From: Minisyncoccota bacterium
Lineage (GTDB): Bacteria > Patescibacteriota > Minisyncoccia > Phycocordibacterales > Phycocordibacteraceae
Length of the DNA stretch: 64,000 nt
Direction of reading: 5' to 3'
Assembly (NCBI GenBank): GCA_036405415.1
Contig: DASWXP010000002.1
Location: 48,097-112,096 of the forward strand
In this document: one piece after another, positions 4,216-63,233 of the stretch
Numbering within the stretch: position 1 is the first letter of the stretch
Layout: each line of letters opens with the position of its first letter
Translations under genes and position numbers: made by a program
The notes under the pieces: generated by a model
What the model was told of the DNA's origin: nothing
What the model saw: only the letters and a program-made list of their open reading frames with translations
Databases searched by the model: none

Positions 4216-4833
4216 CTATGTGTGATCGATCGCGACGATGTGGATCTCGACCCACGCGTTAGGGTCGCCATCGCTGTCCTCGTCATCTTTCCGAACCCGG
4301 TACATATCCTCAGCCATGAACTCTGTAATGGTCAGCTCGTACCAGTGTGACGTCGCCGAAGTGATGATTCCAGGATAGACGGACGAAGGGTAGTCCGGGT
4401 TCTTTCTCCCGATGGGGAGCGGCACCAGGACTGCTGAAGGCTCAGAGACACCGAAGTGATATCCGAGTTCTTTCGCGAGGCCGCGAACCGCGGCGTTGAA
4501 AGGTTCCTCCTGATACTTGCACGTCTCGCGGATGGCGTATTCCTGCTCCTTCGTGACGATGGTTCCGTTCGGATAACTGCGCGCGACCTCGACCCAGCTC
4601 CGGCCCCGTGCAGGGTCGACAATCACGATCTTCACGTTCGTGACGATCCGCTTGATGAATCCGTCCGTGTCGCGGACGAGCACTATCTCGCGTCGCGTCA
4701 CTTCCTTGTAGAGATCACGCAAGCCTTTCGGGCTCGTGTTGAATGCAGCAAGGTCGATTCCTCTCCCGTGCGCTATGAATGCGACCATCTCCTCAAACGA
4801 CGAGGAGGGGTCGAAGGTGAGCTTCTCGCCCAT
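4216..4833 (-). CDS. hypothetical protein (weak Nudix-box-like stretch REtckyqEE...LAKELGY)
   Basis: The ORF looks coding (balanced composition). Only a degenerate Nudix-like motif, so function not assignable. Confidence 0.45.
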   Translation of the reverse strand: MGEKLTFDPSSSFEEMVAFIAHGRGIDLAAFNTSPKGLRDLYKEVTRREIVLVRDTDGFIKRIVTNVKIVIVDPARGRSWVEVARSYPNGTIVTKEQEYAIRETCKYQEEPFNAAVRGLAKELGYHFGVSEPSAVLVPLPIGRKNPDYPSSVYPGIITSATSHWYELTITEFMAEDMYRVRKDDEDSDGDPNAWVEIHIVAIDHT

Positions 4834-7000: not shown

Positions 7001-7642
7001 ATGCATCCCGAACTGCTGCTCGTAGACAAGCCTAAAGGCATCACCTCCTTCGGCGTAATCGCGCGCCTACGGAAAGCGCTCAATACGCGCAAGATGGGGC
7101 ATGCGGGCACGCTTGATCCGCTCGCGTCCGGTCTCATGCTCGTGGGCGTCGAGAAGGGAACCAAGAAGCTTGCGGAACTCATCAAGCTCCCGAAGACGTA
7201 TGAGGCAGAGATCGTGCTCGGAGAAAGGAGGAGCACGGGAGACATGGAAGGAACGATCCTGGAAGAATCGGTAGCAAGAAACATCTCTGAAGACCTGGTG
7301 CGAAAGGCGCTCTCAGACATGGAAGGCATCATCGAGCTCCCGGTGCCCGCGTTCTCTGCGCTCAAGAGAGACGGGAAGCCGCTCTATGTGCGTGCGCGCA
7401 GAGGCGAGATGGTGGAGACGCCCATTCGCGCCATGGAGGTTCGGAGCGCCGTGCTAGATCGTATCGAAACGCACGGAGACAGGACGCATGCATTTATTAC
7501 ATTCGATGTAGGAAGCGGCACGTATATCCGCTCGCTCGCAGAAGAGCTCGGGAGAAGGCTCGGGCATCCTGCGACACTCGGAAACCTGAGGCGCACGAGG
7601 ATAGGGGAATTCGATATCGAGGACGCGCAGGCATTGCCGTAG
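7001..7642 (+). CDS. truB: tRNA pseudouridine(55) synthase TruB
   Basis: LLVDKPKGITSF, HAGTLDPLASGLML and GSGTYIRSLAEELG. Confidence 0.9.
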   Translation: MHPELLLVDKPKGITSFGVIARLRKALNTRKMGHAGTLDPLASGLMLVGVEKGTKKLAELIKLPKTYEAEIVLGERRSTGDMEGTILEESVARNISEDLVRKALSDMEGIIELPVPAFSALKRDGKPLYVRARRGEMVETPIRAMEVRSAVLDRIETHGDRTHAFITFDVGSGTYIRSLAEELGRRLGHPATLGNLRRTRIGEFDIEDAQALP

Positions 7643-8027: not shown

Positions 8028-8267
8028 ATGATCCTCTATGTTAAGAGCGGCTGCCCGTTTAGCGCGAAGGTCCTCATCGAAGCCTCTCTTATCGGCGTAG
8101 AGCTCGAGGAGCGGAACATCAAGGACGAAGCCTTCAAGGAAGAGCTCCTCCAGAAGGGCGGAGAGCTCCAGACGCCGTATCTCGTGGACGAGGAACGCGG
8201 CGTCGCTATGTACGAATCAGACGCCATCGTCGACTACCTTCATGCGACCTTTACTGACGGTCCGTAA
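8028..8267 (+). CDS. glutaredoxin-family protein (CPFS active-site variant)
   Basis: MILYVKSGCPFSAKV has a thioredoxin-fold N-terminus. TPYLVDEE...DAIVDYL is typical of glutaredoxin. Confidence 0.65.
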   Translation: MILYVKSGCPFSAKVLIEASLIGVELEERNIKDEAFKEELLQKGGELQTPYLVDEERGVAMYESDAIVDYLHATFTDGP

Positions 8268-8305: not shown

Positions 8306-8671
8306 ATGCAGATCCACTTCAAAGGTACGAATTATGAGCTTCCTAGCCGCATAACCGCGCTCGCGCGCAGGAAGGTGGAAGCGCTGGGGAAATACCTCGG
8401 AAGGGATCGCGAATACGCGAGAGCGTACATAGACCTCGGGAAGGAGAGCGAGGCGCACCAGAACGGCAAGTTCTGGAGGACTGACATCAATCTCGATGCG
8501 GACGGAAACCGCTTTTACGCCAAAGCGGTAGAAGAGAGCATCGAGAAGGCGATCGACAAGGCCGTGGCCGAGCTCGCAAGCGAGATCAAGACCGCGCGCA
8601 AGCGCCAGCAGAGCCTCGTCAGGAAAGGCGGCGGCGTGATCAAGTCGCTTATGCGCGGCTTCCAGGGATAA
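8306..8671 (+). CDS. hpf: ribosome hibernation promoting factor (HPF/RaiA, short form)
   Basis: MQIHFKGTNYELP...RITALARRKVEALGKY is the canonical HPF N-terminus. Confidence 0.8.
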   Translation: MQIHFKGTNYELPSRITALARRKVEALGKYLGRDREYARAYIDLGKESEAHQNGKFWRTDINLDADGNRFYAKAVEESIEKAIDKAVAELASEIKTARKRQQSLVRKGGGVIKSLMRGFQG

Positions 8672-9518
8672 AACCCTGCGCGAGGAGGTTCGCGTAGTCG
8701 GTCTCAGGCTTTCCTTCAGGCACCACTCGGAGCGGCACGAACGTGCCGCTTTCGAGTTTCGCTGAGCGCACCTTCACGCGCATGCGCACACCGTCCTTCT
8801 CCATGAAGAAGTACGTACCCGGAGATTCTGCATACGCGCGATACTTGCTCCAGTTCTCGGCACTGTCACCCAAAAGGGAAAGCTCTCCGGCTTCCTTCTT
8901 TATCTTCCGCGTATGCGTCGCGTGCGCATGGTGCTGAGGGACGCCCGGAAGCGCTCCTGATTCGAAGGCAGGAAGGATCTCTACGAGAAGCTCGTAACCG
9001 AGCGCGATGAGGCGGGGCCTGAGCTCGCGCGTTGTCTCCTCGGGTTGTATAGAAAGCGTCTTCGTGGCAAGCACGTCGCCCGCATCGAGCTCGTACACCA
9101 TTCTCTGGATGGAGACTCCAGTCTTAGTGTCGCCGTTCAGCAGCGCGGCCTCTACCGGCGAGGCGCCGCGATACTTCGGCAGGAGCGAGTAATGGACATT
9201 GAGGACGCCAAGCGGGAAGGAATCTATGAGCTTCTCGGGGAGTATCTTCCCGTATGCAACCACGATCGCGTACGCAGCATCGTACGCAGAAAGGGAATCG
9301 ATGAACGCGTCGTCGATGCGCTCCGGGGTAAGCACCTCGAGTCCTTGCTCAAGCGCGTACGCTTTCGTGTCGCAGGGCGTGAGCACATGGCCGCGGCCCT
9401 TGGGCGCGTCCGGACTCGTTATGACCGCTTCCGGGCGGTACCCTTTCAGAAGGAGGAACGCGAGCGTGTCGCGCGCGACGTAGGGAGTACCGAAGAAAAG
9501 GAAGGGCTTATGCGTCAT
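8649..9518 (-). CDS. fmt: methionyl-tRNA formyltransferase
   Basis: FFGTP, NVHYSLLPKYRGASPV and a C-terminal Fmt domain. It overlaps the def stop. Confidence 0.9.
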   Translation of the reverse strand: MTHKPFLFFGTPYVARDTLAFLLLKGYRPEAVITSPDAPKGRGHVLTPCDTKAYALEQGLEVLTPERIDDAFIDSLSAYDAAYAIVVAYGKILPEKLIDSFPLGVLNVHYSLLPKYRGASPVEAALLNGDTKTGVSIQRMVYELDAGDVLATKTLSIQPEETTRELRPRLIALGYELLVEILPAFESGALPGVPQHHAHATHTRKIKKEAGELSLLGDSAENWSKYRAYAESPGTYFFMEKDGVRMRVKVRSAKLESGTFVPLRVVPEGKPETDYANLLAQGFIPGSRA

Positions 9519-10026
9519 GGGATTCTTCGCGACGCACCTCTACCATGTCTTCTGCGTGGTCTATGAAGAGGATGCCGTTCAAGTGATCGGTCTCATGTTG
9601 GAATATCTGCGCGAGGATGCCGCCTCCGCCGCGCTCAAACGTGGAGCCGTCGAACGCGCGGGCGCGCACGGTCGCACGGTCATGCCGCATGGTCTTGCCG
9701 TAGATGCCGCGGACCGAGAGGCACCCTTCGTCCATGGAGACGCGCCGCTTCGAGCTCTTCGCGAACTCGGGGTTGATGTATACGCCTACGTCCGGAGGAA
9801 ATGGTAGGTCGCCGGGGGGCACGATGCGGTCGTTGCGGACGATGAAGATGCGCAGCGAGATGCCGATCTGCGGAGCCGCGAGCGCAACGCCGTCCGGCTG
9901 TGCGTCCAAGGACTCTTCCATATCCTTGAGTATCTTCGAAAGCTCCTCGGTACCGAAGAGTTCCTCTCGGACCGGCTCCGCTATCTTGCGGAGAACCGGC
10001 TCGCCGTCTTGGACGATTGGCGTCAT
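9508..10026 (-). CDS. def: peptide deformylase
   Basis: GVALAAPQIG, EGCLSV and QHETDHLNG. The start MTPIVQDGEPVLRK is chosen over the upstream in-frame extension, which would run through a terminator hairpin. Confidence 0.9.
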   Translation of the reverse strand: MTPIVQDGEPVLRKIAEPVREELFGTEELSKILKDMEESLDAQPDGVALAAPQIGISLRIFIVRNDRIVPPGDLPFPPDVGVYINPEFAKSSKRRVSMDEGCLSVRGIYGKTMRHDRATVRARAFDGSTFERGGGGILAQIFQHETDHLNGILFIDHAEDMVEVRREESHDA

Positions 10027-10043
10027 ATAGGGACTATATAGCA

Positions 10044-10090
10044 CAAAAACGAAAAACGCCGGTCTTGGGGTGAAGGCAAGACCGGCGTTT
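10044..10090 (-). terminator. strong Rho-independent terminator (minus strand)
   Basis: Stem acgccggtcttg ... caagaccggcgt (12 bp) followed on the minus strand by TTTTTCGTTTTT. It ends about 18 nt upstream of the def start. Confidence 0.8.
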
Positions 10091-10376
10091 CGAAAGATGC
10101 CGCGCAACGAGGCGCCGGACTGCGGATACGCATGCCTTCCAGGGGTTGGGTGACGACGCATCGTCAGGCAAAAATTCCGCTTCGTCGCTCACTGCCGTAG
10201 AGCAACATCTTCCTAGAGAAACCGGTCATTGTGCCGGCCTCTCATTAGTGTTCGTAAAGATCAGATGCGTCCCGAGAAACCTTCCAGTTGCTCATATCAT
10301 GCACAAGTCACTGGTAGGTCCCTCGGGAACGCCAAGCGGGCAACGCTTGAGCGCGGGGGAGACAGGCTCCGAGGCG
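10091..10376 (-). ncRNA. candidate non-coding RNA or structured leader (about 290 nt) between the promoter and the terminator upstream of def
   Basis: Perfect TTGACA-16-TATAAA promoter. No ORF above about 20 codons, GC-rich paired segments and an intrinsic terminator. The class is not recognised. Confidence 0.3.
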
Positions 10377-10383
10377 CGAGGTT

Positions 10384-10411
10384 TTTATATCAGAAATAGG
10401 AACTCTGTCAA
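10384..10411 (-). promoter_or_regulatory. sigma70 promoter (-35 TTGACA, 16 nt spacer, -10 TATAAA)
   Basis: Minus-strand sequence gaTTGACAgagttcctatttctgaTATAAAaacc, immediately after the stop of the 10419..10709 gene. Confidence 0.6.
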
Positions 10412-10418
10412 TCAGTCC

Positions 10419-10709
10419 CTAGAACGGCCTGTCCGGCTCCTTATGCTTTTCCGGGTCTATCTCCCACCAGAACTTCTTGCTGAAATTCTTCGCGCGGCTG
10501 CATACGGTCTTCAAGTAATAGAGGTCGTCCGTAGGAATGCCCTCGAGGATGCGGCCCATGCGCGCCATGGTGAGTTTCGGGAGTCCGTCCTCAGCGCGCG
10601 AGTAGTTGAGGTGCCGCACAAAAAAGCGCATCAGTTCGCCGCGCTCGGTCTTCCTGCTCGGCTTCTGGTCGCCGAAATCCTTAGGGAGGATGTCGCCGAT
10701 GCTCTTCAT
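10419..10709 (-). CDS. hypothetical small protein
   Basis: 96-aa ORF downstream of murA with coding-like composition. Confidence 0.45.
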   Translation of the reverse strand: MKSIGDILPKDFGDQKPSRKTERGELMRFFVRHLNYSRAEDGLPKLTMARMGRILEGIPTDDLYYLKTVCSRAKNFSKKFWWEIDPEKHKEPDRPF

Positions 10710-10731: not shown

Positions 10732-12042
10732 CTACGCGTGCTCTATCCGGGCACCGATAGACTGGAGGCGATTTACCAAGTCCTCGTATCCGCGATTGAT
10801 GCTATAGACGTTCCTAAGCGTCGAGCGCCCGTCTGCTGCGAGCATGCCGATGAGGAGGATGGTTGCGGGACGGAGCGCTGGAGGCGCCACGATCTCGGCG
10901 CCGCGCAAGTGTACCGGGCCATGGAGCTGGATGCGGTGCGGATCGAGGAGAAGCGTGTTCGCGCCAAGACGGTCGAGCTCGGTGTAGTAGATGGCGCGCT
11001 TCTCGTACACCCAGTCATGGATCAAGGTCTCGCCCTCGGCCTTCATGGCGATAACCGCGAAGAACGGCAGGTTATCGATGTTGAGGCCCGGGTACGGGCG
11101 TGCATGGATCTTCTCCGGGAACGCCGTGAGCTCTGAAGGCTCGATATGGATGTCGGCAAGTTTCGTGATGCCGTTGTCTGAAAGAGCGTGATCTGTAAGG
11201 GAGAAATTGAGCCCCATCTTTGCGAGCACTTCGAGCTCTACCTCAAGGAACTCGATCGGCGCGTTGCGGATGGTGAGTGCCGAGTTCGTGGTCGCGGCGA
11301 GTGCGATGAAGAACATCGCATCGATCGGGTCCTCGCCGATCGCGTAGGACACGTCTTTCCGGATCTCCCCGACGCCGGTCACGGTAAGGGTGGTCGTACC
11401 GAGCCCTTCGATCGTCACGCCGAGCTCCCTAAGGAACCCGCACACTTCCTGCACCTGGTAGTTTGCGCTCGCGTACTTGATAACGGTAGTGCCCTCGATG
11501 CGGGAAGCCGCAAGGAGCGCATTAATAGTCGCGGTATCGCTCGATTCGTAGAGCACGATCTCCGCAGGCGAGAGGCCGTCATGCGAGACCTGATAGTGGT
11601 CGGTAAGCGTCTCGATCGCGATGCCGAACTTCTCGAGCGCCCAGAGATGCGAGCGCACGGAACGCAGGCCTAAGGTGCAGCCCCCAGATTGTGGGATCTC
11701 GAAAGAAGTGAAGTGGTGCACGAGAGAACCAATGAACATAAGGATGGAGCGTGTGCGCACCGCGGCTGCGCGATCAATCTGATCGAGCGCGATCGTCTCA
11801 GGCGGCGTGATAACCACGTCCTTGCCCTGCCACTCGACAGACACGCCGATGGAGCGGAGCACCTCGATGAGGCGGTGCACCTCTTCTATCTTCGGGACCT
11901 TCCGGAGCGTGGTCGTGCCCTTATTCAGGAGGGACGCGGCGAGTATCGACACTGCCCCATTTTTGGAGCAGTTGGTGGTAATGGAGCCCGAGAGCGGGTG
12001 GCCGCCCTCTACGACGAAATTGTTCTCTCCAGATTGGGTCAT
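10732..12042 (-). CDS. murA: UDP-N-acetylglucosamine 1-carboxyvinyltransferase
   Basis: FVVEGGHPLSGSITTNCSKNGAVSILAASLL aligns with the MurA N-terminus, on an EPSP-synthase fold. The start was moved to MTQSGENNF. Confidence 0.9.
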   Translation of the reverse strand: MTQSGENNFVVEGGHPLSGSITTNCSKNGAVSILAASLLNKGTTTLRKVPKIEEVHRLIEVLRSIGVSVEWQGKDVVITPPETIALDQIDRAAAVRTRSILMFIGSLVHHFTSFEIPQSGGCTLGLRSVRSHLWALEKFGIAIETLTDHYQVSHDGLSPAEIVLYESSDTATINALLAASRIEGTTVIKYASANYQVQEVCGFLRELGVTIEGLGTTTLTVTGVGEIRKDVSYAIGEDPIDAMFFIALAATTNSALTIRNAPIEFLEVELEVLAKMGLNFSLTDHALSDNGITKLADIHIEPSELTAFPEKIHARPYPGLNIDNLPFFAVIAMKAEGETLIHDWVYEKRAIYYTELDRLGANTLLLDPHRIQLHGPVHLRGAEIVAPPALRPATILLIGMLAADGRSTLRNVYSINRGYEDLVNRLQSIGARIEHA

Positions 12043-12142
12043 GGCCGCTATTGTAACAGCCGAGACACGTTCCTGATATCTGCCTTTACAGCAACCCCAG
12101 GCAGGCGTAAGGTCCATGCAGACTCTTCTTTGGAGGAAGGTT

Positions 12143-13792: not shown

Positions 13793-13821
13793 TTGACAAT
13801 CATATATTCATATACTATAGT
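13793..13821 (+). promoter_or_regulatory. sigma70 promoter (-35 TTGACA, 17 nt, -10 TATAGT) in an AT-rich stretch
   Basis: atTTGACAatcatatattcatatacTATAGTat. GGAAGGA Shine-Dalgarno 8 nt before the ATG at 13862. Confidence 0.55.
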
Positions 13822-13861
13822 ATATCCAGTACCCACTCACTGAATTCGGAAGGAATTCCTG

Positions 13862-14506
13862 ATGCTGAAGGCTGTTCTTCTCGCTTCCTGCATGACCATC
13901 GTGTGCGCCGTCCCGGCAGCGGCCCAGACCGCGATGCCCGGATCCGGTGGCCAGACCACCGTCACCGTCTCTGCGCAGAACGACTACCGCTTCGAGCGCC
14001 TGGCCGAGACCATTCCCGGCGCGGTCGCGAACGTGGAACTGAACCATGACGTCGGCAACGGCATCTCGTTCAACGCGTGGGCCCAGGCGGGCGAGTCGAA
14101 GCTCGCGCACGAGCTCGATCTCACTGTCACCGGTACGAAGGCCTTCGGCATCGTCGAAGCGTCCCTGACGGCCGGCACCTATCTCGTCCGCGACACGGAG
14201 CCCATCTACGTCGTGACGGCCACGGCGAGCATTCCGATCTCCGAATCGGTGTCGCTCGACTACCAGGTCGATCACTTCGAAGGCGGCTTCGAGGAGACCA
14301 CGCACAGCGTGGCCGTCTCGGGCATCGTCGGGAACGCGTCGTTGTCGGCCGGCAAGGCGCACAACGCCCGGAGCGGGCTCGATCCGTGGTTCGCCACGGC
14401 GAGCGTGCCCATCTTCGGGGACTCGGGCTTCTCGCTCGAGCTGAAGGGCTACTGGGGCGCCGGCGACGACCAGGGCGTGACGCTCGGGATCTCCCGAACG
14501 TTCTAG
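13862..14506 (+). CDS. secreted hypothetical protein (signal peptide; C-terminus resembles an OMP beta-signal)
   Basis: Signal peptide MLKAVLLASCMTIVCAVPAAAQTA. Ser/Thr/Gly-rich and beta-strand-like. It ends VTLGISRTF, alternating hydrophobic residues with a terminal Phe. Confidence 0.55.
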   Translation: MLKAVLLASCMTIVCAVPAAAQTAMPGSGGQTTVTVSAQNDYRFERLAETIPGAVANVELNHDVGNGISFNAWAQAGESKLAHELDLTVTGTKAFGIVEASLTAGTYLVRDTEPIYVVTATASIPISESVSLDYQVDHFEGGFEETTHSVAVSGIVGNASLSAGKAHNARSGLDPWFATASVPIFGDSGFSLELKGYWGAGDDQGVTLGISRTF

Positions 14507-24695: not shown

Positions 24696-25646
24696 ATGGA
24701 AGGCCGTCACGACACCGTTCTCCTCGAAGAAGCCGTCGATGTGCTCGACGTACAGGCAACGGACGCTGTCGTGGATGCGACCTTGGGCGGCGCAGGGCAT
24801 TTCGCGCTCCTTCTCGGGAAGCTCGGGAAGAACGGCGCGCTCATGGGAATCGATGCCGATGAGGACGCTATCGCGCGCGCAAACAAGGTAGTTGCTGAAG
24901 TCTCAGAAGCGGATCGACCTAAGGTATCCCTCATGCACGGGAACTTCCGCGAGCTTGCGACCATGCTCGACGAAGCAGGCATGACGCCGGACAAGGTACT
25001 CTTTGACCTCGGATGGAGCGGCTTCCACCTCACGCGCGGCCGCGGCTTCTCCTTCAAGGCGGATGAGCCGCTTCACATGACCTACGGGGACCCGGCTCAG
25101 GGCACTACCGCCGCAGATCTCGTGAACCATCTTTCCGAGGCGTCGCTCGCGGACATGCTGTGGTCCTTGGGCGAGGAGCGCTTCGCGCGCTCGATCGCGC
25201 GCTCGATCGTCGCAGCCCGTGAGAACAGGCCGCTTGAGACGACGAGCGACCTCGTAGCGGCTATCGAGCAGGGCGTCCCGTCCTGGTACCGGCATCGCCG
25301 CATCCATCCGGCAACGAAGACCTTCCAGGCGCTGCGCATCGCGGTTAACGACGAGCTCGGCGCGCTGCGCGAGGGCCTTGCGGCAGCCCTCGAGCGCGTC
25401 CCTGCCGGCGGACGCATTGCGGTCATAACCTTCCACAGCATCGAAGACAGGATCGTAAAGACCCTGTTCCGCGAGGCGGTGGAAGCCGGGAAGGGAAGCC
25501 TGCTTACGAGAAAGCCCTTAGCCCCGTCGGTCCAAGAGACCGTACGGAATCCGCGAGCCAGATCCGCGAAGCTCCGCACGTTCGTCTCGGGCCCTCAAGA
25601 AATTAAGAAACGCATCAATCTAACCTCGTTCCCCGCTTATGCCTAG
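24696..25646 (+). CDS. rsmH: 16S rRNA (cytosine1402-N4)-methyltransferase RsmH
   Basis: VDATLGGAGH, FDLGWSG and ITFHSIEDRIVK. Confidence 0.9.
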   Translation: MEGRHDTVLLEEAVDVLDVQATDAVVDATLGGAGHFALLLGKLGKNGALMGIDADEDAIARANKVVAEVSEADRPKVSLMHGNFRELATMLDEAGMTPDKVLFDLGWSGFHLTRGRGFSFKADEPLHMTYGDPAQGTTAADLVNHLSEASLADMLWSLGEERFARSIARSIVAARENRPLETTSDLVAAIEQGVPSWYRHRRIHPATKTFQALRIAVNDELGALREGLAAALERVPAGGRIAVITFHSIEDRIVKTLFREAVEAGKGSLLTRKPLAPSVQETVRNPRARSAKLRTFVSGPQEIKKRINLTSFPAYA

Positions 25647-25921: not shown

Positions 25922-27652
25922 ATGCGCAGGGCGATACGGCTCAGACTCCGGCTCCTCACCTTCGGGCTCGCGGCCGTCGCGCTCCTTCTTGTTACGCGTC
26001 TCTATTTCGTGCAGGTAGTGCATGGCGGGGAGTTCGGTTTGCGGGCCGAACGCCAGTACATGTCCGCGAGCCAGGAGCTCTTTGATCGCGGCTCCATCTA
26101 CTTCACCAGGAAGGACGGGAGTATGCTTTCGGCTGCGACCCTGGTTACGGGCTTCACGGTTGCGATGAGCCCGAAGCTGGTCGAAGATCCGGAAGCCGCG
26201 TACGTCGCTATCAATGCTATCTTCCCGATCGAGCGGGAGCCGTTCTTCCAGTCGGTCGCGCGCAAGGAGGACCCGTACGAGGTTGTCGCCAAGCGCGTGC
26301 CGGAAGACGAGGGGCGCGCTATCGAGGCGCTCGGACTCGAGGGAATTTCTGTGTCCCGGGAGCGCTGGCGCGCGTACCCGGGCGAGACCCGCGCCGCGCA
26401 GTCTATCGGGTTCGTCGCGTTCGACGACGACGACACGATCGCGGGACGTTTCGGGCTTGAGCGCTACTACGAGGACGTGCTCTCGCGCGGCTCCACCGGC
26501 GTGTTCGGGAACTTCTTCGCGGAGCTTTTCGCGAACATCGACAACGCGGTCGCGGACGGCCGCGGCGCGCGCGAGGGCGACCTCGTGACCAGTATCGAGC
26601 CGATGGTGCAGGAGAAGCTCGATCAGGTGCTCCTTTCCATAAACGCGCAGTACGGGAGCCGCGAGACCGGCGGCATCATCATGGACCCCAAGACCGGCGC
26701 CATCATCGCGCTCGATACCGCGCCGTCTTTTAACCTGAACGATTTCCAGAATGGGGACTCGACGCACTTCGGGAATCCGCTCGTGGAGCACCGGTACGAG
26801 TTTGGCTCCATCGTGAAGGCGCTTACCATGGCCGCGGGCCTCGATTCGGGTGCTGTAGGGCCTACCTCGACCTACAACGATACGGGCTGTACCACGCTCA
26901 ACAACAAGACGTTCTGCAATTACGACCTCAAGGCGCGCGGCGGCGGGACACCGATGCAGGAAGTGCTCTCGCAGTCCCTTAACATGGGTGCCGCATATAT
27001 AGCGCTCCAGGTAGGGCACGAGCGCTTCCGCGGATACTTCAAGGATCTCGGCATGAACACGGAGACCGGCATCGACCTGCCGAGCGAGATCCGCGGGGAC
27101 CTCGCGAACATCGAGACGAGTCCGCGCGATATCGAGTACGCGACCGCGTCTTACGGACAGGGTATCGCGCAGACGCCTATCGCCATGATCCGGGCGCTTG
27201 GCGCGCTCGCGAATGACGGGCAGATCGTCACGCCGCACCTGGTATCGAAGGTGCGTCTCGAGTCAGGGATCGAGAAGCAGCTTTCCTGGGGCATGCCGGA
27301 GCGCGTGTTCAGCTCGAAGGCAGCGGAAGACACGACGCGCATGCTGGTCGAGGTGGTGGACGCGAAGCTCGCCGGAGGGACCGTCAAGATCCCGGAGATG
27401 AGCGTCGCCGCGAAGACCGGTACCGCGCAGATCGCAGGCCCGGGCGGCAAGTACGCAGAAGGCAAGTACTTCCACTCCTTCTTCGGGTACTTCCCGGCGT
27501 ACGAGCCCCGGTTCATCATCCTGCTGTACACGAGGGAGCCGGGAGGGGTACAGTACGCTTCCGAGACCCTCACGCACCCCTTCATGGAGCTCACACATTT
27601 CCTGATCAATTATTACGAGATCCCGCCTGACCGGGCAGACTATCCTTCGTAA
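25922..27652 (+). CDS. ftsI: penicillin-binding protein (FtsI/PBP3-like transpeptidase)
   Basis: N-terminal TM, SIVK (SxxK), SQSLN (SxN) and KTGTAQ. Confidence 0.85.
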   Translation: MRRAIRLRLRLLTFGLAAVALLLVTRLYFVQVVHGGEFGLRAERQYMSASQELFDRGSIYFTRKDGSMLSAATLVTGFTVAMSPKLVEDPEAAYVAINAIFPIEREPFFQSVARKEDPYEVVAKRVPEDEGRAIEALGLEGISVSRERWRAYPGETRAAQSIGFVAFDDDDTIAGRFGLERYYEDVLSRGSTGVFGNFFAELFANIDNAVADGRGAREGDLVTSIEPMVQEKLDQVLLSINAQYGSRETGGIIMDPKTGAIIALDTAPSFNLNDFQNGDSTHFGNPLVEHRYEFGSIVKALTMAAGLDSGAVGPTSTYNDTGCTTLNNKTFCNYDLKARGGGTPMQEVLSQSLNMGAAYIALQVGHERFRGYFKDLGMNTETGIDLPSEIRGDLANIETSPRDIEYATASYGQGIAQTPIAMIRALGALANDGQIVTPHLVSKVRLESGIEKQLSWGMPERVFSSKAAEDTTRMLVEVVDAKLAGGTVKIPEMSVAAKTGTAQIAGPGGKYAEGKYFHSFFGYFPAYEPRFIILLYTREPGGVQYASETLTHPFMELTHFLINYYEIPPDRADYPS

Positions 27653-30192: not shown

Positions 30193-30256
30193 CGTATCAA
30201 ATGAAAAACCGCCCGGCGCATTCTGCGTCCAGGGCGATTCTGTTCATGCGCACCTC

Positions 30257-32643: not shown

Positions 32644-35309
<2,666 letters not shown>

Positions 35310-38575: not shown

Positions 38576-39940
38576 CTAGAACTCGTCGGCGAACTCTCCG
38601 TACCCGGTCTTGTCCATCGGCATGAAGCTCGTGCGCTTCTCGTCGAAGTAGAGCTCGACCTTGCCCGTGGGGCCGTTACGATGCTTCTCGATGAGTATCT
38701 CAGCGATGTTCGGGCGATCGCTTTCCTTGTTCTGCTTGTCCTCGCGATGGATGAACATGACCACGTCCGCGTCCTGCTCGATGGAACCCGAGTCGCGGAG
38801 GTCCGAGAGGCGCGGCTTGCCGCCGCGCTGCTCCACGGCGCGCGAGAGCTGCGAGAGCGCGATAACCGGCACTTCGATCTCGCGGGCGAGCTGCTTCAGG
38901 GAGCGGGAGATCTCCGTGACCTGCTGCACCATGGAATCGGATGCCTTGGTATTGGTCGGGGCCATGAGCTGGAGGTAGTCCACCACGATGAGCCCGATGC
39001 CGCGCTCGCGCTTCAGGCGGCGCGCAACCGCGCGCATGGAAAGGATGTTCTGTGCGGGCTTGTCGTCTATGTAGATAGGGGCTTTCGACAGGGTTTCGAG
39101 CGCGTCGCGGATCTTTCCGAAATCCTCCTCCGCATGGATCGCGCCCGTGCGCATCTTCCACGAGTTCACGAACGACTCAGCGGAGAGCATGCGGTCTACG
39201 AGCTGCTCGGAGCTCATCTCGAGCGAGAAGATGCCCACCGGCGTGTCGTGCTTCACGGCAACGTTGCGCGCGATATCGAGCGCGAGCGACGTCTTACCCA
39301 TGGACGGACGGGCCGCGAGGATGATGAGGTCGGACTTATGGAGGCCCGAGAGGAGATTGTCGAGGTCCGGGAAACCGGTAGGAACGCCGCGCACGCTGCC
39401 GCCGTTCTTCGAGAGGGTTTCGATGCGCTCCCATGCGCCGTCCACCTTGTCCTTGATCGCGATGAACTTATGCGTGGCCGATGCGTTTCCGATCGCATAG
39501 ATAGACTTCTCTGCGTGGTCGAGCACATGCGCCGTATCGCCTGCGTCGTCGTACGCGGCTTCCGTGATCTCGTGCGCCACGTCGATAAGGGAGCGCATGA
39601 CATGCTTCTTCGCGACAAGTTCCGCGTAGTGCGCGTAGTTGCCCGGAGTGGGAGACGAGCTCGCGAGCTCCGCGATATACGCGCGCCCGCCAGCGCGCTC
39701 AAGCACGCCTTTCGCGTTAAGGCGCTCGCCGAGGGAGAGGATGTCGATCGGGTCGCCGCGCTCCGTGAGCTCGCGCATGCACTCGAATATGTGGCGGTGC
39801 TTCTCTGCATAGAAGGAGTCGGCGCGGATGAGGTCCGAGACGTCGTGTATGGCGTCAGGCTTCAAGAGGAGGGAACCGAGCAGGGCGCGCTCAGAGTCCA
39901 TGCTCTGAGGCGGTACGCGGAGAGTCGGGTCAGCAGCCAT
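38576..39940 (-). CDS. dnaB: replicative DNA helicase DnaB (no intein)
   Basis: N-terminal DnaB domain. Walker A GKTSLAL in ARPSMGKTS, a Walker B motif and ILIEKHRNGPTG. Confidence 0.9.
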   Translation of the reverse strand: MAADPTLRVPPQSMDSERALLGSLLLKPDAIHDVSDLIRADSFYAEKHRHIFECMRELTERGDPIDILSLGERLNAKGVLERAGGRAYIAELASSSPTPGNYAHYAELVAKKHVMRSLIDVAHEITEAAYDDAGDTAHVLDHAEKSIYAIGNASATHKFIAIKDKVDGAWERIETLSKNGGSVRGVPTGFPDLDNLLSGLHKSDLIILAARPSMGKTSLALDIARNVAVKHDTPVGIFSLEMSSEQLVDRMLSAESFVNSWKMRTGAIHAEEDFGKIRDALETLSKAPIYIDDKPAQNILSMRAVARRLKRERGIGLIVVDYLQLMAPTNTKASDSMVQQVTEISRSLKQLAREIEVPVIALSQLSRAVEQRGGKPRLSDLRDSGSIEQDADVVMFIHREDKQNKESDRPNIAEILIEKHRNGPTGKVELYFDEKRTSFMPMDKTGYGEFADEF

Positions 39941-42367: not shown

Positions 42368-43678
42368 ATGCGCGCCATGAGCGCTTCATCAGCCGTGGAT
42401 AGAATGTGCGTGATAGAATGCACGCATATGCAAGAAGAAGAGGTACAGGCTTCGAAGCCTGCATTTGCCAGGATCGCAAAGCTCGGCATCGCGTTCGCGC
42501 TCGTGCTCGCCATCGGCTTTGCCGGAGGTGTCGCTGCAGGCGCGGAAGGGAAGAGCGTATTCTCCAATCTCCCGATCCTCGGAGACGGACTCGACGCCAC
42601 TCCCGATTCAGAAGCGGACCTCACTGATTTCTGGAAAGCATGGAACGCGCTCGATCAGCGATTCGTAGAGACTCATGCGACGGGCACGCCGCCATCGATC
42701 AAGGAGAAGCTCTGGGGCGCTATCCAGGGCCTTGCGGCGTCCTACGGGGACCCATATACGGTATTCATGCCGCCGAGCGAAGCCAAGCAGTTCAAGGACG
42801 ACATCAGCGGCAACTTCGAAGGCGTGGGCATGGAGGTGGGCGTGAAGGACGGCGTGCTTACCGTCATCTCGCCGCTCAAGGGAACGCCGGCTGAGCGCGC
42901 GGGCCTGCGCTCAGGGGACGCGATCCTTACGATCGACGGCACCTCGACTGACGGGCTCTCGACCGACCAGGCCGTTAAGCTCATCCGCGGCAAGAAGGGA
43001 ACGACGGTCGTGTTCAATATCCTGCGCGAAGGCTCGGTATCCGAGATCTCCGTGGTGCGCGATACCATCGCGGTCCCGACCATCGAGACGTCTGAGGAGA
43101 GCGGAGTGTTCATCATCTCCTTCTACAGCTTCACCGCCAACTCCGCGCAGCTCTTCTCGAAGGCGGTGGCAGAGTTCCGTGCGTCCGGCTCGAAGTCCCT
43201 CATCGTAGACCTCCGCGGCAATCCTGGCGGATACCTCGAGGCCGCGGTCTCGATCTCGAGCCACTTCCTTCCGAAGGGCGCGGTCGTGGTAACCGAGGAC
43301 TTCAAAGGAAAGCAGGAGAACGTCGTGCACCGCAGTCGCGGCATCGGCGGGCTTCCGGAGGGCACGAGGGTAGCGATCCTCATCGACCAGGGATCCGCAT
43401 CAGCCTCTGAGATCATGGCCGGCGCGCTCCAGGACGGGGACGCGGCTACCCTCATCGGCGCCAAGTCCTTCGGAAAGGGCTCGGTGCAAGAGCTCGTCGA
43501 GATCAACGGCGGGGCGCTCAAGGTTACGATCGCACGCTGGCTCACGCCAGCAGGGCAGTCCATCTCGGACGGCGGCCTTACGCCGGACATCGAGGTCAAG
43601 CGCACCCGTGAGGACGCTGAGGCCGGAAGGGACCCCCAGAAGGCTCGCGCTATCGAGTTCCTCACGACCGGGCGCTAG
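42368..43678 (+). CDS. ctpA: carboxyl-terminal processing protease (S41, PDZ)
   Basis: PDZ domain (GLRSGDAILTIDG), LIVDLRGNPGGYL and DQGSASASEI. Confidence 0.85.
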   Translation: MRAMSASSAVDRMCVIECTHMQEEEVQASKPAFARIAKLGIAFALVLAIGFAGGVAAGAEGKSVFSNLPILGDGLDATPDSEADLTDFWKAWNALDQRFVETHATGTPPSIKEKLWGAIQGLAASYGDPYTVFMPPSEAKQFKDDISGNFEGVGMEVGVKDGVLTVISPLKGTPAERAGLRSGDAILTIDGTSTDGLSTDQAVKLIRGKKGTTVVFNILREGSVSEISVVRDTIAVPTIETSEESGVFIISFYSFTANSAQLFSKAVAEFRASGSKSLIVDLRGNPGGYLEAAVSISSHFLPKGAVVVTEDFKGKQENVVHRSRGIGGLPEGTRVAILIDQGSASASEIMAGALQDGDAATLIGAKSFGKGSVQELVEINGGALKVTIARWLTPAGQSISDGGLTPDIEVKRTREDAEAGRDPQKARAIEFLTTGR

Positions 43679-62546: not shown

Positions 62547-63233
62547 TGTGTACTCCGTGTAGTACTCGACTTTGATATCATCCACCCATTCGGTGCCCGG
62601 GATAATCGAGATGACCTTTCCGAACACACGAGAATCTTCCTCACGCACGATGATGGGCTTGTACGTGCCGTAGTGATTCTCTGGGTTGAGGTACACCACT
62701 TCATCCACCTTCGTGAAGCGCTTGATTACGGCCATGTTGCCAAGGATCGCGACTACCTTGTCTCCGTCGGTGACGTTCTCCGTCACCTCGACGATCACGT
62801 AATCGCCATTGCGGATACCGGCGTCGATCATGCTGTCTCCAACCGCGCGCACTGCCACGATATTTGTCGCGTTCTTGCGCGCGCCGATCAGGCTCCGGTC
62901 TACGACGATGTACTCCCCAAAGCTCTGCTCCGCGTATACGTCCAAAGCGTCGCATCCCGCAGAAGCGATAACCGGTACCTCGATGAGGTCAGAGGACATC
63001 TGGGACTCCACCCCTTCGATGATCGCGATGCTGCGGTGGCGGAACCGGTCGCGCTTGATAAGTCCCTTGCGCTCGAGCGCCTCGAGCCGCTGCGTCACGC
63101 TTCGGAGCGACTTGAGCGAGAACCGAGCACCGAGCTCGGTAATGGTCGGCGCCTTGCCGTGCTCATGCACGTACTCCTGGATGAACGAGAGCGTTTCCTT
63201 CTGAGCCGGGGTGAGCGCAACGAGCCGAGTCAT
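62544..63233 (-). CDS. lexA: LexA repressor (S24 peptidase)
   Basis: Winged-helix N-terminus, ASAG cleavage site, GDSM catalytic Ser and VIKRF Lys. Confidence 0.9.
   Translation of the reverse strand: MTRLVALTPAQKETLSFIQEYVHEHGKAPTITELGARFSLKSLRSVTQRLEALERKGLIKRDRFRHRSIAIIEGVESQMSSDLIEVPVIASAGCDALDVYAEQSFGEYIVVDRSLIGARKNATNIVAVRAVGDSMIDAGIRNGDYVIVEVTENVTDGDKVVAILGNMAVIKRFTKVDEVVYLNPENHYGTYKPIIVREEDSRVFGKVISIIPGTEWVDDIKVEYYTEYT

Follow-up and report, generated by a model that had tools for sequence, protein, structure and literature searches.

A candidate lineage-restricted non-coding RNA gene between p96 and def in Parcubacteria/Paceibacterota

The DNA considered here, called the window throughout, is the whole 64,000-nt stretch of contig DASWXP010000002.1 from a Minisyncoccota bacterium, and the element in question is a predicted structured RNA encoded on its minus strand between p96, the gene of a conserved hypothetical protein, and def, the gene of peptide deformylase. 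On this strand the order is murA, p96, spacer, def and fmt, and the spacer holds a promoter-to-terminator unit followed by a -10 box that serves def. The features of the locus, in the direction of transcription, are the following.

10732-12117, minus strand: murA, whose true start is likely near 12040.
10419..10709, minus strand: p96, the open reading frame (ORF) of the conserved 96-residue hypothetical protein, the upstream neighbour.
10027-10418, minus strand: p96-def spacer, 392 nt.
10406..10411, minus strand: -35 hexamer TTGACA, beginning 8 nt past the p96 stop codon.
10384..10392, minus strand: extended -10 element TGATATAAA (TGn plus TATAAA, the TATAAA at 10389-10384), separated from the -35 hexamer by 16 nt.
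10045..10377, minus strand: predicted non-coding RNA of 326-333 nt, with its probable 5' end about 7 nt past the -10 element and its 3' end in the U-run.
10045..10090, minus strand: intrinsic terminator with a 15-bp stem, a 9-nt loop CCUUCACCC and then UUUUUCGUUUUU (-24.2 kcal/mol, z-score -6.4).
10033..10043, minus strand: extended -10 region of def, TGCTATATAGT (TGnTATAGT), 6-8 nt before the def ATG.
9508..10026, minus strand: def, peptide deformylase, ATG at 10026, assigned by Pfam PF01327 and orthologue alignments.
8649-9518, minus strand: fmt (Pfam PF00551), directly after def.

The TTGACA-16-TATAAA promoter that the first-pass annotation had placed after the p96 stop on the minus strand proves to be the best site in the 64 kb. 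In a custom sigma-70 scan of the window, TTGACA-16-TGATATAAA is the top match (11/12 plus TG), and only two sites score at least 11/12, against 0.13 expected in shuffled sequences; a rule-based promoter scan overlooked it because its rule demands T at position 6 of the -10 hexamer. The G+C-rich hairpin and U-run described 18 nt before the def start also hold up. The hairpin spans 10090-10054, its stem has the core ACGCCGGTCTTG/CAAGACCGGCGT and can be extended from 12 to 15 bp, and the U-run TTTTTCGTTTTT after it finishes at 10045, 18 nt ahead of the def ATG at 10026. This terminator was overlooked by a rule-based scan because its loop exceeds 8 nt. The unit had been given a length of about 290 nt, a figure to be replaced by the 326-333 nt of the predicted RNA. 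Since p96 has no terminator of its own, p96 transcripts must enter the RNA unit and end at the terminator of the RNA. A 15-nt exact match to part of the terminator (the loop end and the 3' arm) lies at 26685-26699, in the ORF 25922-27652 on the plus strand; it has the same sense as the RNA and so offers no pairing site, and it is probably due to chance (E 0.02 within the window).

The downstream boundary depends on where def begins. The match to PF01327 covers residues 2-161 of the def product, and tblastn alignments of def orthologues begin at residue 1 in most of about 70 cases, so that the conserved deformylase starts at ATG 10026 and the in-frame extension to 10161 is spurious, as had been judged on first pass. 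The mechanically called def ORF (9508-10161, minus strand) is 45 codons too long and crosses the terminator of the RNA, and is probably an artefact.

Relatives were collected by scanning genome and metagenome collections with def and with aligned p96 homologues and by exact-protein look-ups, which gave 94 loci (numbered with the prefix L below), including L083 and L084, which are from the same organism and show no informative substitutions between them. Both p96 and def are present in roughly 75 of these loci, essentially all of which keep the order p96-def-fmt. Between the p96 stop and the def ATG, the spacing falls into two classes, about 4-50 nt in some 30 loci and 150-580 nt in some 30 others, and most of the window's closest relatives belong to the long-spacer class. 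A promoter-RNA-terminator unit occupies the junction in about 30 of the approximately 75 loci and follows a shared plan: TTGAC-16/17-TAtaaT, often with TGn, a body of 105-424 nt, a G+C-rich hairpin with a U-run, and TGnTATAGT. Of the 24 spacers scored, 20 have the TTGAC box beginning 0-12 nt past the p96 stop, and the hairpin with its U-run is present at the equivalent place in all homologous spacers. Across these loci, protein identity is 54-82% for def and 62-90% for p96. Relatives with spacers of 80-130 nt have the terminator hairpin only. The same arrangement at the same junction in some 30 related loci is more than chance would give, and the promoter-to-terminator unit is thus confirmed as real.

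The junction also accommodates other DNA. Longer unrelated insertions (300-1470 nt) between p96 and def are found in L081 (2792-4254), L052 (2795-3818), L042 (1262-2309), L076 (2795-3528), L049 (708-1259) and L065 (937-1238); none follows the promoter-RNA-terminator plan, and the junction thus seems to be an insertion hotspot. In L001 (3422-3700), a hairpin terminator stands between p96 and the RNA promoter, the opposite strand has an ORF of about 40 codons that reads like a single transmembrane helix (MSILIEDHWAGFFATLIVLVFALIVLLACAAHLP...), and a perfect GC-rich palindrome lies just ahead of that promoter, whose -35 box reads TTGACG.

By the taxon names that its homologues carry, p96 assigns the source of the window to Parcubacteria/Paceibacterota (Candidate Phyla Radiation). 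More than 600 p96 homologues occur in Parcubacteria/Paceibacterota, where p96 sits between murA and def; the family members have 91-124 residues and are highly conserved, with invariant motifs such as PTxDLYYL and FWWE(V/I)DP. Searches of Pfam, NCBIfam and PDB sequences gave no match to p96, and its AlphaFold2 model, all-helical with a pLDDT (predicted local distance difference test) of 83, found no match in a fold search of the PDB. The protein was considered as a partner of the RNA and set aside, as family, PDB and fold searches give no clue and the gene occurs just as regularly in genomes that lack the RNA.

A small protein would be one explanation for a transcribed spacer. The first-pass annotation had stated that the region has no ORF above about 20 codons, which strictly does not hold: ORFs of 21, 36 and 52 residues lie on the same strand (10164..10229, 10023..10133 and 10034..10192, respectively), and ORFs of 56 and 204 residues lie on the plus strand. 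Moreover, in L085 a public gene call places an 87-residue "gene" (1554-1817) over the equivalent spacer, which is probably an artefact. Nevertheless, none of these ORFs is conserved among homologous spacers: a six-frame comparison of about 28 of them revealed no conserved peptide in any frame, giving only short matches, in several frames at once, over terminator or promoter DNA. Pfam has no match for the 52- or the 204-residue ORF, and the 36- and 52-residue ORFs cross the terminator and the def promoter. Translation of the 21-, 36- or 52-residue minus-strand ORF or of the 56-residue plus-strand ORF as the purpose of the unit is therefore considered very improbable. A conserved small protein, and homologues that lack the spacer, had been named beforehand as findings that would count against the unit; the former was not found, and the spacer is absent in about half of the relatives.

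A divergent member of a universal RNA family (6S RNA, RNase P RNA, transfer-messenger RNA (tmRNA) or signal recognition particle (SRP) RNA), lying beyond the reach of the Rfam models, would be in keeping with the RNA's size, its strong promoter and its housekeeping neighbours. The sequences of 6S RNAs are strongly divergent, and their gene ssrS adjoins a folate-pathway gene in some bacteria. Against such an identity, Rfam in gathering mode found only two tRNAs in the window, both away from the spacer; in E-value mode (E up to 5-10) the region 9900-10550 gave noise only, such as microRNA models, and 16 homologous loci gave nothing in their spacers. ARAGORN found neither a tRNA nor a tmRNA in the spacer. 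The first-pass statement that RNase P, tmRNA, SRP and 6S features could not be recognised by eye is thus upheld by the Rfam search that it had proposed. Furthermore, the predicted fold is a row of local hairpins and not the 5'-3' closed rod with a central bubble of 6S RNA, it contains no P4-type long-range pairing, T-arm or acceptor stem, and the unit is absent from many close relatives, unlike an essential RNA. A universal RNA in disguise is accordingly rated as most improbable.

The location of the unit, always directly upstream of def-fmt and on the same strand, invites the question of whether it controls these genes in cis, and the first-pass annotation had left the choice open between an independent small RNA (sRNA) and a leader of def-fmt. 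TATAGT occurs in 19 of 24 spacers against 1.3 expected, and in long-spacer loci the TGnTATAGT box lies 6-10 nt before the def ATG; relatives without a spacer carry TGnTAtAgT 6-7 nt before the def ATG, directly past the p96 stop. The def ATG has no preceding Shine-Dalgarno (SD) sequence. A like layout precedes p96, with a TGCTACACT box 6 nt before its ATG. By established promoter geometry, an extended -10 element at 6-8 nt from a start codon sets the start of transcription at or next to the AUG. Most simply, then, the def mRNA would be leaderless.

The layout extends beyond this locus. Many genes on both strands of the window, and also genes of L023-L082, lack an SD sequence and have an extended -10 element (TGnTAnnnT) whose end lies 6-8 nt from the ATG, with such sites in the window at about 6986, 8013, 10724, 12058, 30199, 31430, 39956, 42411 and 55292; genes so built include p96, murA and the ORFs 7001-7642 and 8028-8267. 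Leaderless mRNAs thus seem to be common in the source genome and its relatives, as far as promoter positions can tell. The T-rich tails of terminators serve at the same time as the T-rich stretch that directly precedes the -10 box of the following gene. The second-best promoter of the window, TTGACA-17-TATAGT (13793-13870, plus strand), serves a gene with a leader, an SD-like GGAAGGA and an ATG at 13862, whose product begins like a signal peptide, so that the source genome contains SD-led genes alongside leaderless ones.

Control in cis could take the form of a structured leader with a regulated attenuator, or of terminating transcription that modulates the def promoter through occlusion or polymerase hand-over. 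Besides the constant position of the unit, such control would be in keeping with the U-run, which abuts the def -10 box, and with the terminator 3' arm of the nearest clade, where GGGACC or GAGACC, 17 nt before the def -10 box, resembles a weak -35 element. Elsewhere in the window, too, as near 30199, genes have a U-run followed directly by a TGn -10 box, and the abutment thus appears to be a general feature of a compact genome. Moreover, a separate -10 box stands 6-8 nt ahead of the def ATG, as it does in spacerless relatives, and in a read-through transcript the def AUG would be internal, without an SD sequence and poorly placed, so that def would be translated poorly, which speaks against a leader or attenuator. 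The folds show strong terminators and, beside them, no conserved alternative pairing (antiterminator), no riboswitch or leader family of Rfam matches the window region or the 16 loci, the sequence of the body is not conserved, and about half of the relatives lack the element. Control in cis is thus regarded as unlikely. Of the two possibilities left open on first pass, the independent sRNA has gained from the unit's own promoter and terminator, its presence at some 30 loci, and the lack of a conserved ORF and of an Rfam match, whereas the leader or attenuator is not supported, in view of the separate -10 box of def, its persistence in spacerless relatives and the absence of the spacer in about half of the relatives.

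As to the GGGACC/GAGACC arm itself, it stands exactly 17 nt before the def TATAGT in L004, L005, L006, L009, L085 and L090, and in this nearest clade of the window it may double as a weak -35 element for def; the window differs in that an additional U-run breaks up the 17-nt spacing.

The whole predicted RNA folds with -149.7 kcal/mol (z-score -5.9), and ahead of the terminator it comprises the following parts.

10333..10377, minus strand: 5' hairpins H1a, with a C-rich internal loop CUC/CCC, and H1b (-17.3 kcal/mol, z-score -2.7).
10267..10332, minus strand: H2, a near-perfect 66-nt hairpin with five G-U pairs (-38.6 kcal/mol, z-score -7.0).
10243..10266, minus strand: single-stranded linker AUCUGAUCUUUACGAACACUAAUG between H2 and H3, with the motif UCUUUACGA at 10260-10252.
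10215..10242, minus strand: hairpin H3 (-12.5 kcal/mol, z-score -2.9).
10092..10213, minus strand: the long irregular hairpin H4, closed by a 12-bp stem and carrying a C-rich segment CACCCAACCCC at its apex.

The five G-U pairs of H2 give greater stability on the RNA strand, and in the window the sense strand exceeds the antisense one in stability by 9 kcal/mol. Folding with homologous loci, which the first-pass annotation had suggested as a check, gave a uniform outcome: all 24 scored RNA bodies fold beyond dinucleotide shuffles, with z-scores from -3.5 to -11.1. Loops of the predicted hairpins are enriched in C-runs, with CCC in 44 of 181 loops against 20.3 ± 3.8 in dinucleotide shuffles (about two-fold), and unpaired CCC occurs 122 times against 76 ± 5.6 in shuffles, while 85% of the G residues are paired.

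Short motifs also recur in the interiors of the homologous RNAs. CCTCC (CCUCC in the RNA) is found in 20 of 30 interiors against 11.8 expected, TCTTTA in 7 of 30 (0.8 expected; its copy in the window is the single-stranded UCUUUAC(GA) linker), TAATGA in 6 of 30 (0.9 expected) and AGCGAC in 9 of 30 (2.2 expected). The paired elements GCG[AC]C...GGCGC occur in 13 of 31 bodies, compared with 3.9 in shuffles and a shuffle maximum of 10. In the window they form, within H4, the helix GCGAC (about 10189-10185)/GGCGC (about 10116-10112) with an A.G mismatch, and this (A)GCGAC/GGCGC(U) helix is common to the window and to L004, L006, L007, L009, L085, L086 and L087 of its nearest clade. Its next pair inward is G-C in the window, U-A in L009 and A-U in L004, L007 and L085; L006, L086 and L087 have no direct pair there. 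In nine lineages that form a more distant group, the stem that closes the last hairpin, GCC-RY-CGGC/GCCG-RY-GGC, is 84% paired and shows double changes in 6 of 13 pairs, with a covariation score of 0.301 against 0.193 ± 0.027 (none of 500 shuffles reaches it) and 0.05-0.17 in slid controls.

Taken as a whole, the unit is interpreted as an independent, functional and trans-acting non-coding RNA gene, an interpretation given a probability of roughly 0.55. On the best reading of the sequence comparisons, its family would be absent from Rfam and restricted to one Parcubacteria/Paceibacterota lineage, and the unity of this family across all loci is suggested by synteny, by the constant distance of the promoter from the p96 stop, by the common architecture and by short motifs, not by alignment.

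Several results weigh against this interpretation. Alignments of the spacers by blastn are limited to the terminator and promoter parts and leave the body unaligned, and nhmmer found no sequence homologue of the window RNA in 92 related loci. Covariance models recover their own seeds only, and neither R1, built from L007 and L086, nor R2, built from nine sequences of the more distant group (clade B), detects the window; R2 additionally found L019, a near-duplicate of its seed L018, and, weakly, L043. The length of the body varies four-fold (105-424 nt). The unit is missing in L091 and decayed in L088, in spite of p96 identities of 80% and 81%, respectively, so it is dispensable. The ends of the RNA (about 10377 to 10052/10045) are placed by consensus elements only. 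In the window, the folding signal comes mainly from H2 (z-score -7.0) and the terminator (z-score -6.4), whereas H1 and H3 are modest (about -2.8) and H4 folded alone is not significant (z-score -1.6). Moreover, the sense strand is more stable than the antisense strand in only 15 of 30 loci, that is, with no strand asymmetry, and G-U pairs make up only 8.8% of the predicted pairs; by itself, the folding signal is compatible with palindromes at the DNA level. The failure of the body to align is unsurprising in view of the divergence of the flanking proteins (def 54-82%, p96 62-90%). Alignment of the window with L001 by MAFFT was meaningless, the last hairpin of the window clade could not be aligned by MAFFT, and pairwise RNAalifold was uninformative.

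Many of these results are what would be expected if the RNA had no function and the spacer were a fast-evolving, hairpin-rich expansion of the p96 3' end and terminator that insulates def, with a promoter that is incidental or unrelated to the RNA, or if the hairpins were DNA palindromes. The unconserved body, the four-fold variation in length, the loss in close relatives, the symmetric folding with few G-U pairs, the spacers of 80-130 nt that hold the terminator hairpin alone and the unrelated insertions (550-1470 nt) that other genomes carry at this junction all agree with such an origin. However, the promoter keeps a fixed offset in 20 of 24 lineages although their proteins are only 54-90% identical, a divergence at which neutral sites should be saturated; the C-runs in loops and the short interior motifs are enriched beyond dinucleotide composition; one helix covaries; and compact genomes should delete a useless 300-400 nt. 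Since a bare terminator suffices in spacers of 80-130 nt and the genomes are compact, a promoter with 100-400 nt of RNA needs another reason. Neither is the spacer repeated, as no other copy of any of its segments above 15 nt exists in the 64 kb window, and a repeated palindromic element of the REP or MITE type was discarded for want of a further copy there. A functionless unit is thus considered rather unlikely.

In terms of mechanism, an independent RNA gene would operate as follows. Transcription from the promoter 8 nt past the p96 stop would produce an RNA of five hairpin domains joined by a conserved single-stranded linker, which would end at the strong intrinsic terminator that the p96 mRNA would share. 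The def-fmt pair would be expressed separately, as a leaderless mRNA from its own extended -10 box, and the terminator would, as a side effect, shield the leaderless def promoter from read-through. The RNA itself would act in trans, most plausibly through its unpaired C-rich loops, the linker UCUUUAC(GA) and the A.G-mismatched GCGAC/GGCGC helix, which could pair with G-rich (SD-like) segments of mRNAs or bind a protein. A specific mechanism of base pairing through the C loops, which their enrichment and the conserved linker suggest by analogy with the C-rich sRNAs of Firmicutes, is doubtful, and the GCGAC/GGCGC helix, given its conserved mismatch, rather resembles a site of protein binding or tertiary contact. 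A broader proposal is decidedly unlikely: a strongly expressed Paceibacteria-specific RNA of 100-420 nt with several anti-SD-like C loops would globally regulate, or act as a sponge for, the SD-led minority of mRNAs or a C-binding protein, in bacteria whose other mRNAs are largely leaderless. More speculative still is a variant in which the cassette would feed terminated RNA polymerase to the def promoter, which has no -35 element.

Possible partners of the linker were sought in the window through its complement (GTTCGTAAAGATC, up to 2 mismatches), with 7 non-self sites against 1.5 expected in shuffles. These near-complements of the linker GAUCUUUACGAAC lie at 4284-4296, 4636-4648, 25451-25463, 34671-34683, 39110-39122, 42922-42934 and 62613-62625, on both strands and mostly within or antisense to ORFs, and are not interpretable as targets; their excess may be an effect of codon composition. 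The site at 4284-4296 overlaps a possible start codon at 4286, where the frame is ambiguous and the protein has no Pfam match.

Several known systems share traits with the unit. In enterobacteria, DapZ and MicL are sRNAs embedded in 3' untranslated regions (3' UTRs) with promoters of their own. As in such sRNAs, the promoter of the present unit lies at the end of the upstream gene, the terminator is shared with the upstream mRNA and the RNA is non-coding. However, 3'-UTR-embedded sRNAs are about 80-300 nt long and Hfq-dependent, with a conserved seed and a promoter inside the coding sequence, whereas the present RNAs have 105-424 nt, many hairpins and a promoter just past the stop codon. RsaE/RoxS and other UCCC-motif sRNAs of Firmicutes base-pair through C-rich loops, and the present RNA likewise has several C-rich loops or segments left unpaired, for which G-rich SD regions would be possible partners; it differs in being at least three times longer, in matching no Rfam model (E up to 5-10), and in coming from another phylum and from a genome with many apparently leaderless genes. 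A sponge of the CsrB/RsmZ type, which would show many GGA motifs in its hairpin loops, was rejected, since 85% of the G residues are paired and GGG occurs in 3 loops compared with 44 for CCC (GGA itself was not counted).

Like 6S RNA (ssrS), the unit is a structured, stand-alone RNA with a strong promoter, poor sequence conservation and housekeeping neighbours, but it does not match RF00013, does not form a single rod with a central bubble and is absent from many close relatives. It resembles OLE, raiA, HEARO and GOLLD, all of them in Rfam, in being larger than typical sRNAs, rich in hairpins and lineage-restricted; these RNAs, however, have conserved cores that support covariance models, whereas here there are only short motifs and one helix, and no Rfam match. 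Finally, the unit shares with attenuators and riboswitch leaders a structured RNA that ends in an intrinsic terminator shortly before a coding gene of the same strand, and differs from them in that the downstream def has a promoter between terminator and ATG and that neither an aptamer-like core nor an adjacent antiterminator is present.

Regulatory and structural RNAs of the Candidate Phyla Radiation are, to our knowledge, almost unknown, and a full-text literature search for structured or non-coding RNAs of this group returned nothing relevant. The unit described here is a new candidate for a promoter-to-terminator bacterial non-coding RNA gene, in a phylum with few known ones, and a non-coding unit of 300-400 nt that persists in the very small genomes of uncultured bacteria is unlikely to be idle. 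Apparently leaderless genes, together with terminator tails that run up to -10 boxes, matter for gene calling, as the over-extended def and the 87-residue call in L085 illustrate. If the RNA is real and abundant, it would offer a concrete locus for metatranscriptomic validation and a first entry point to post-transcriptional control in these bacteria.

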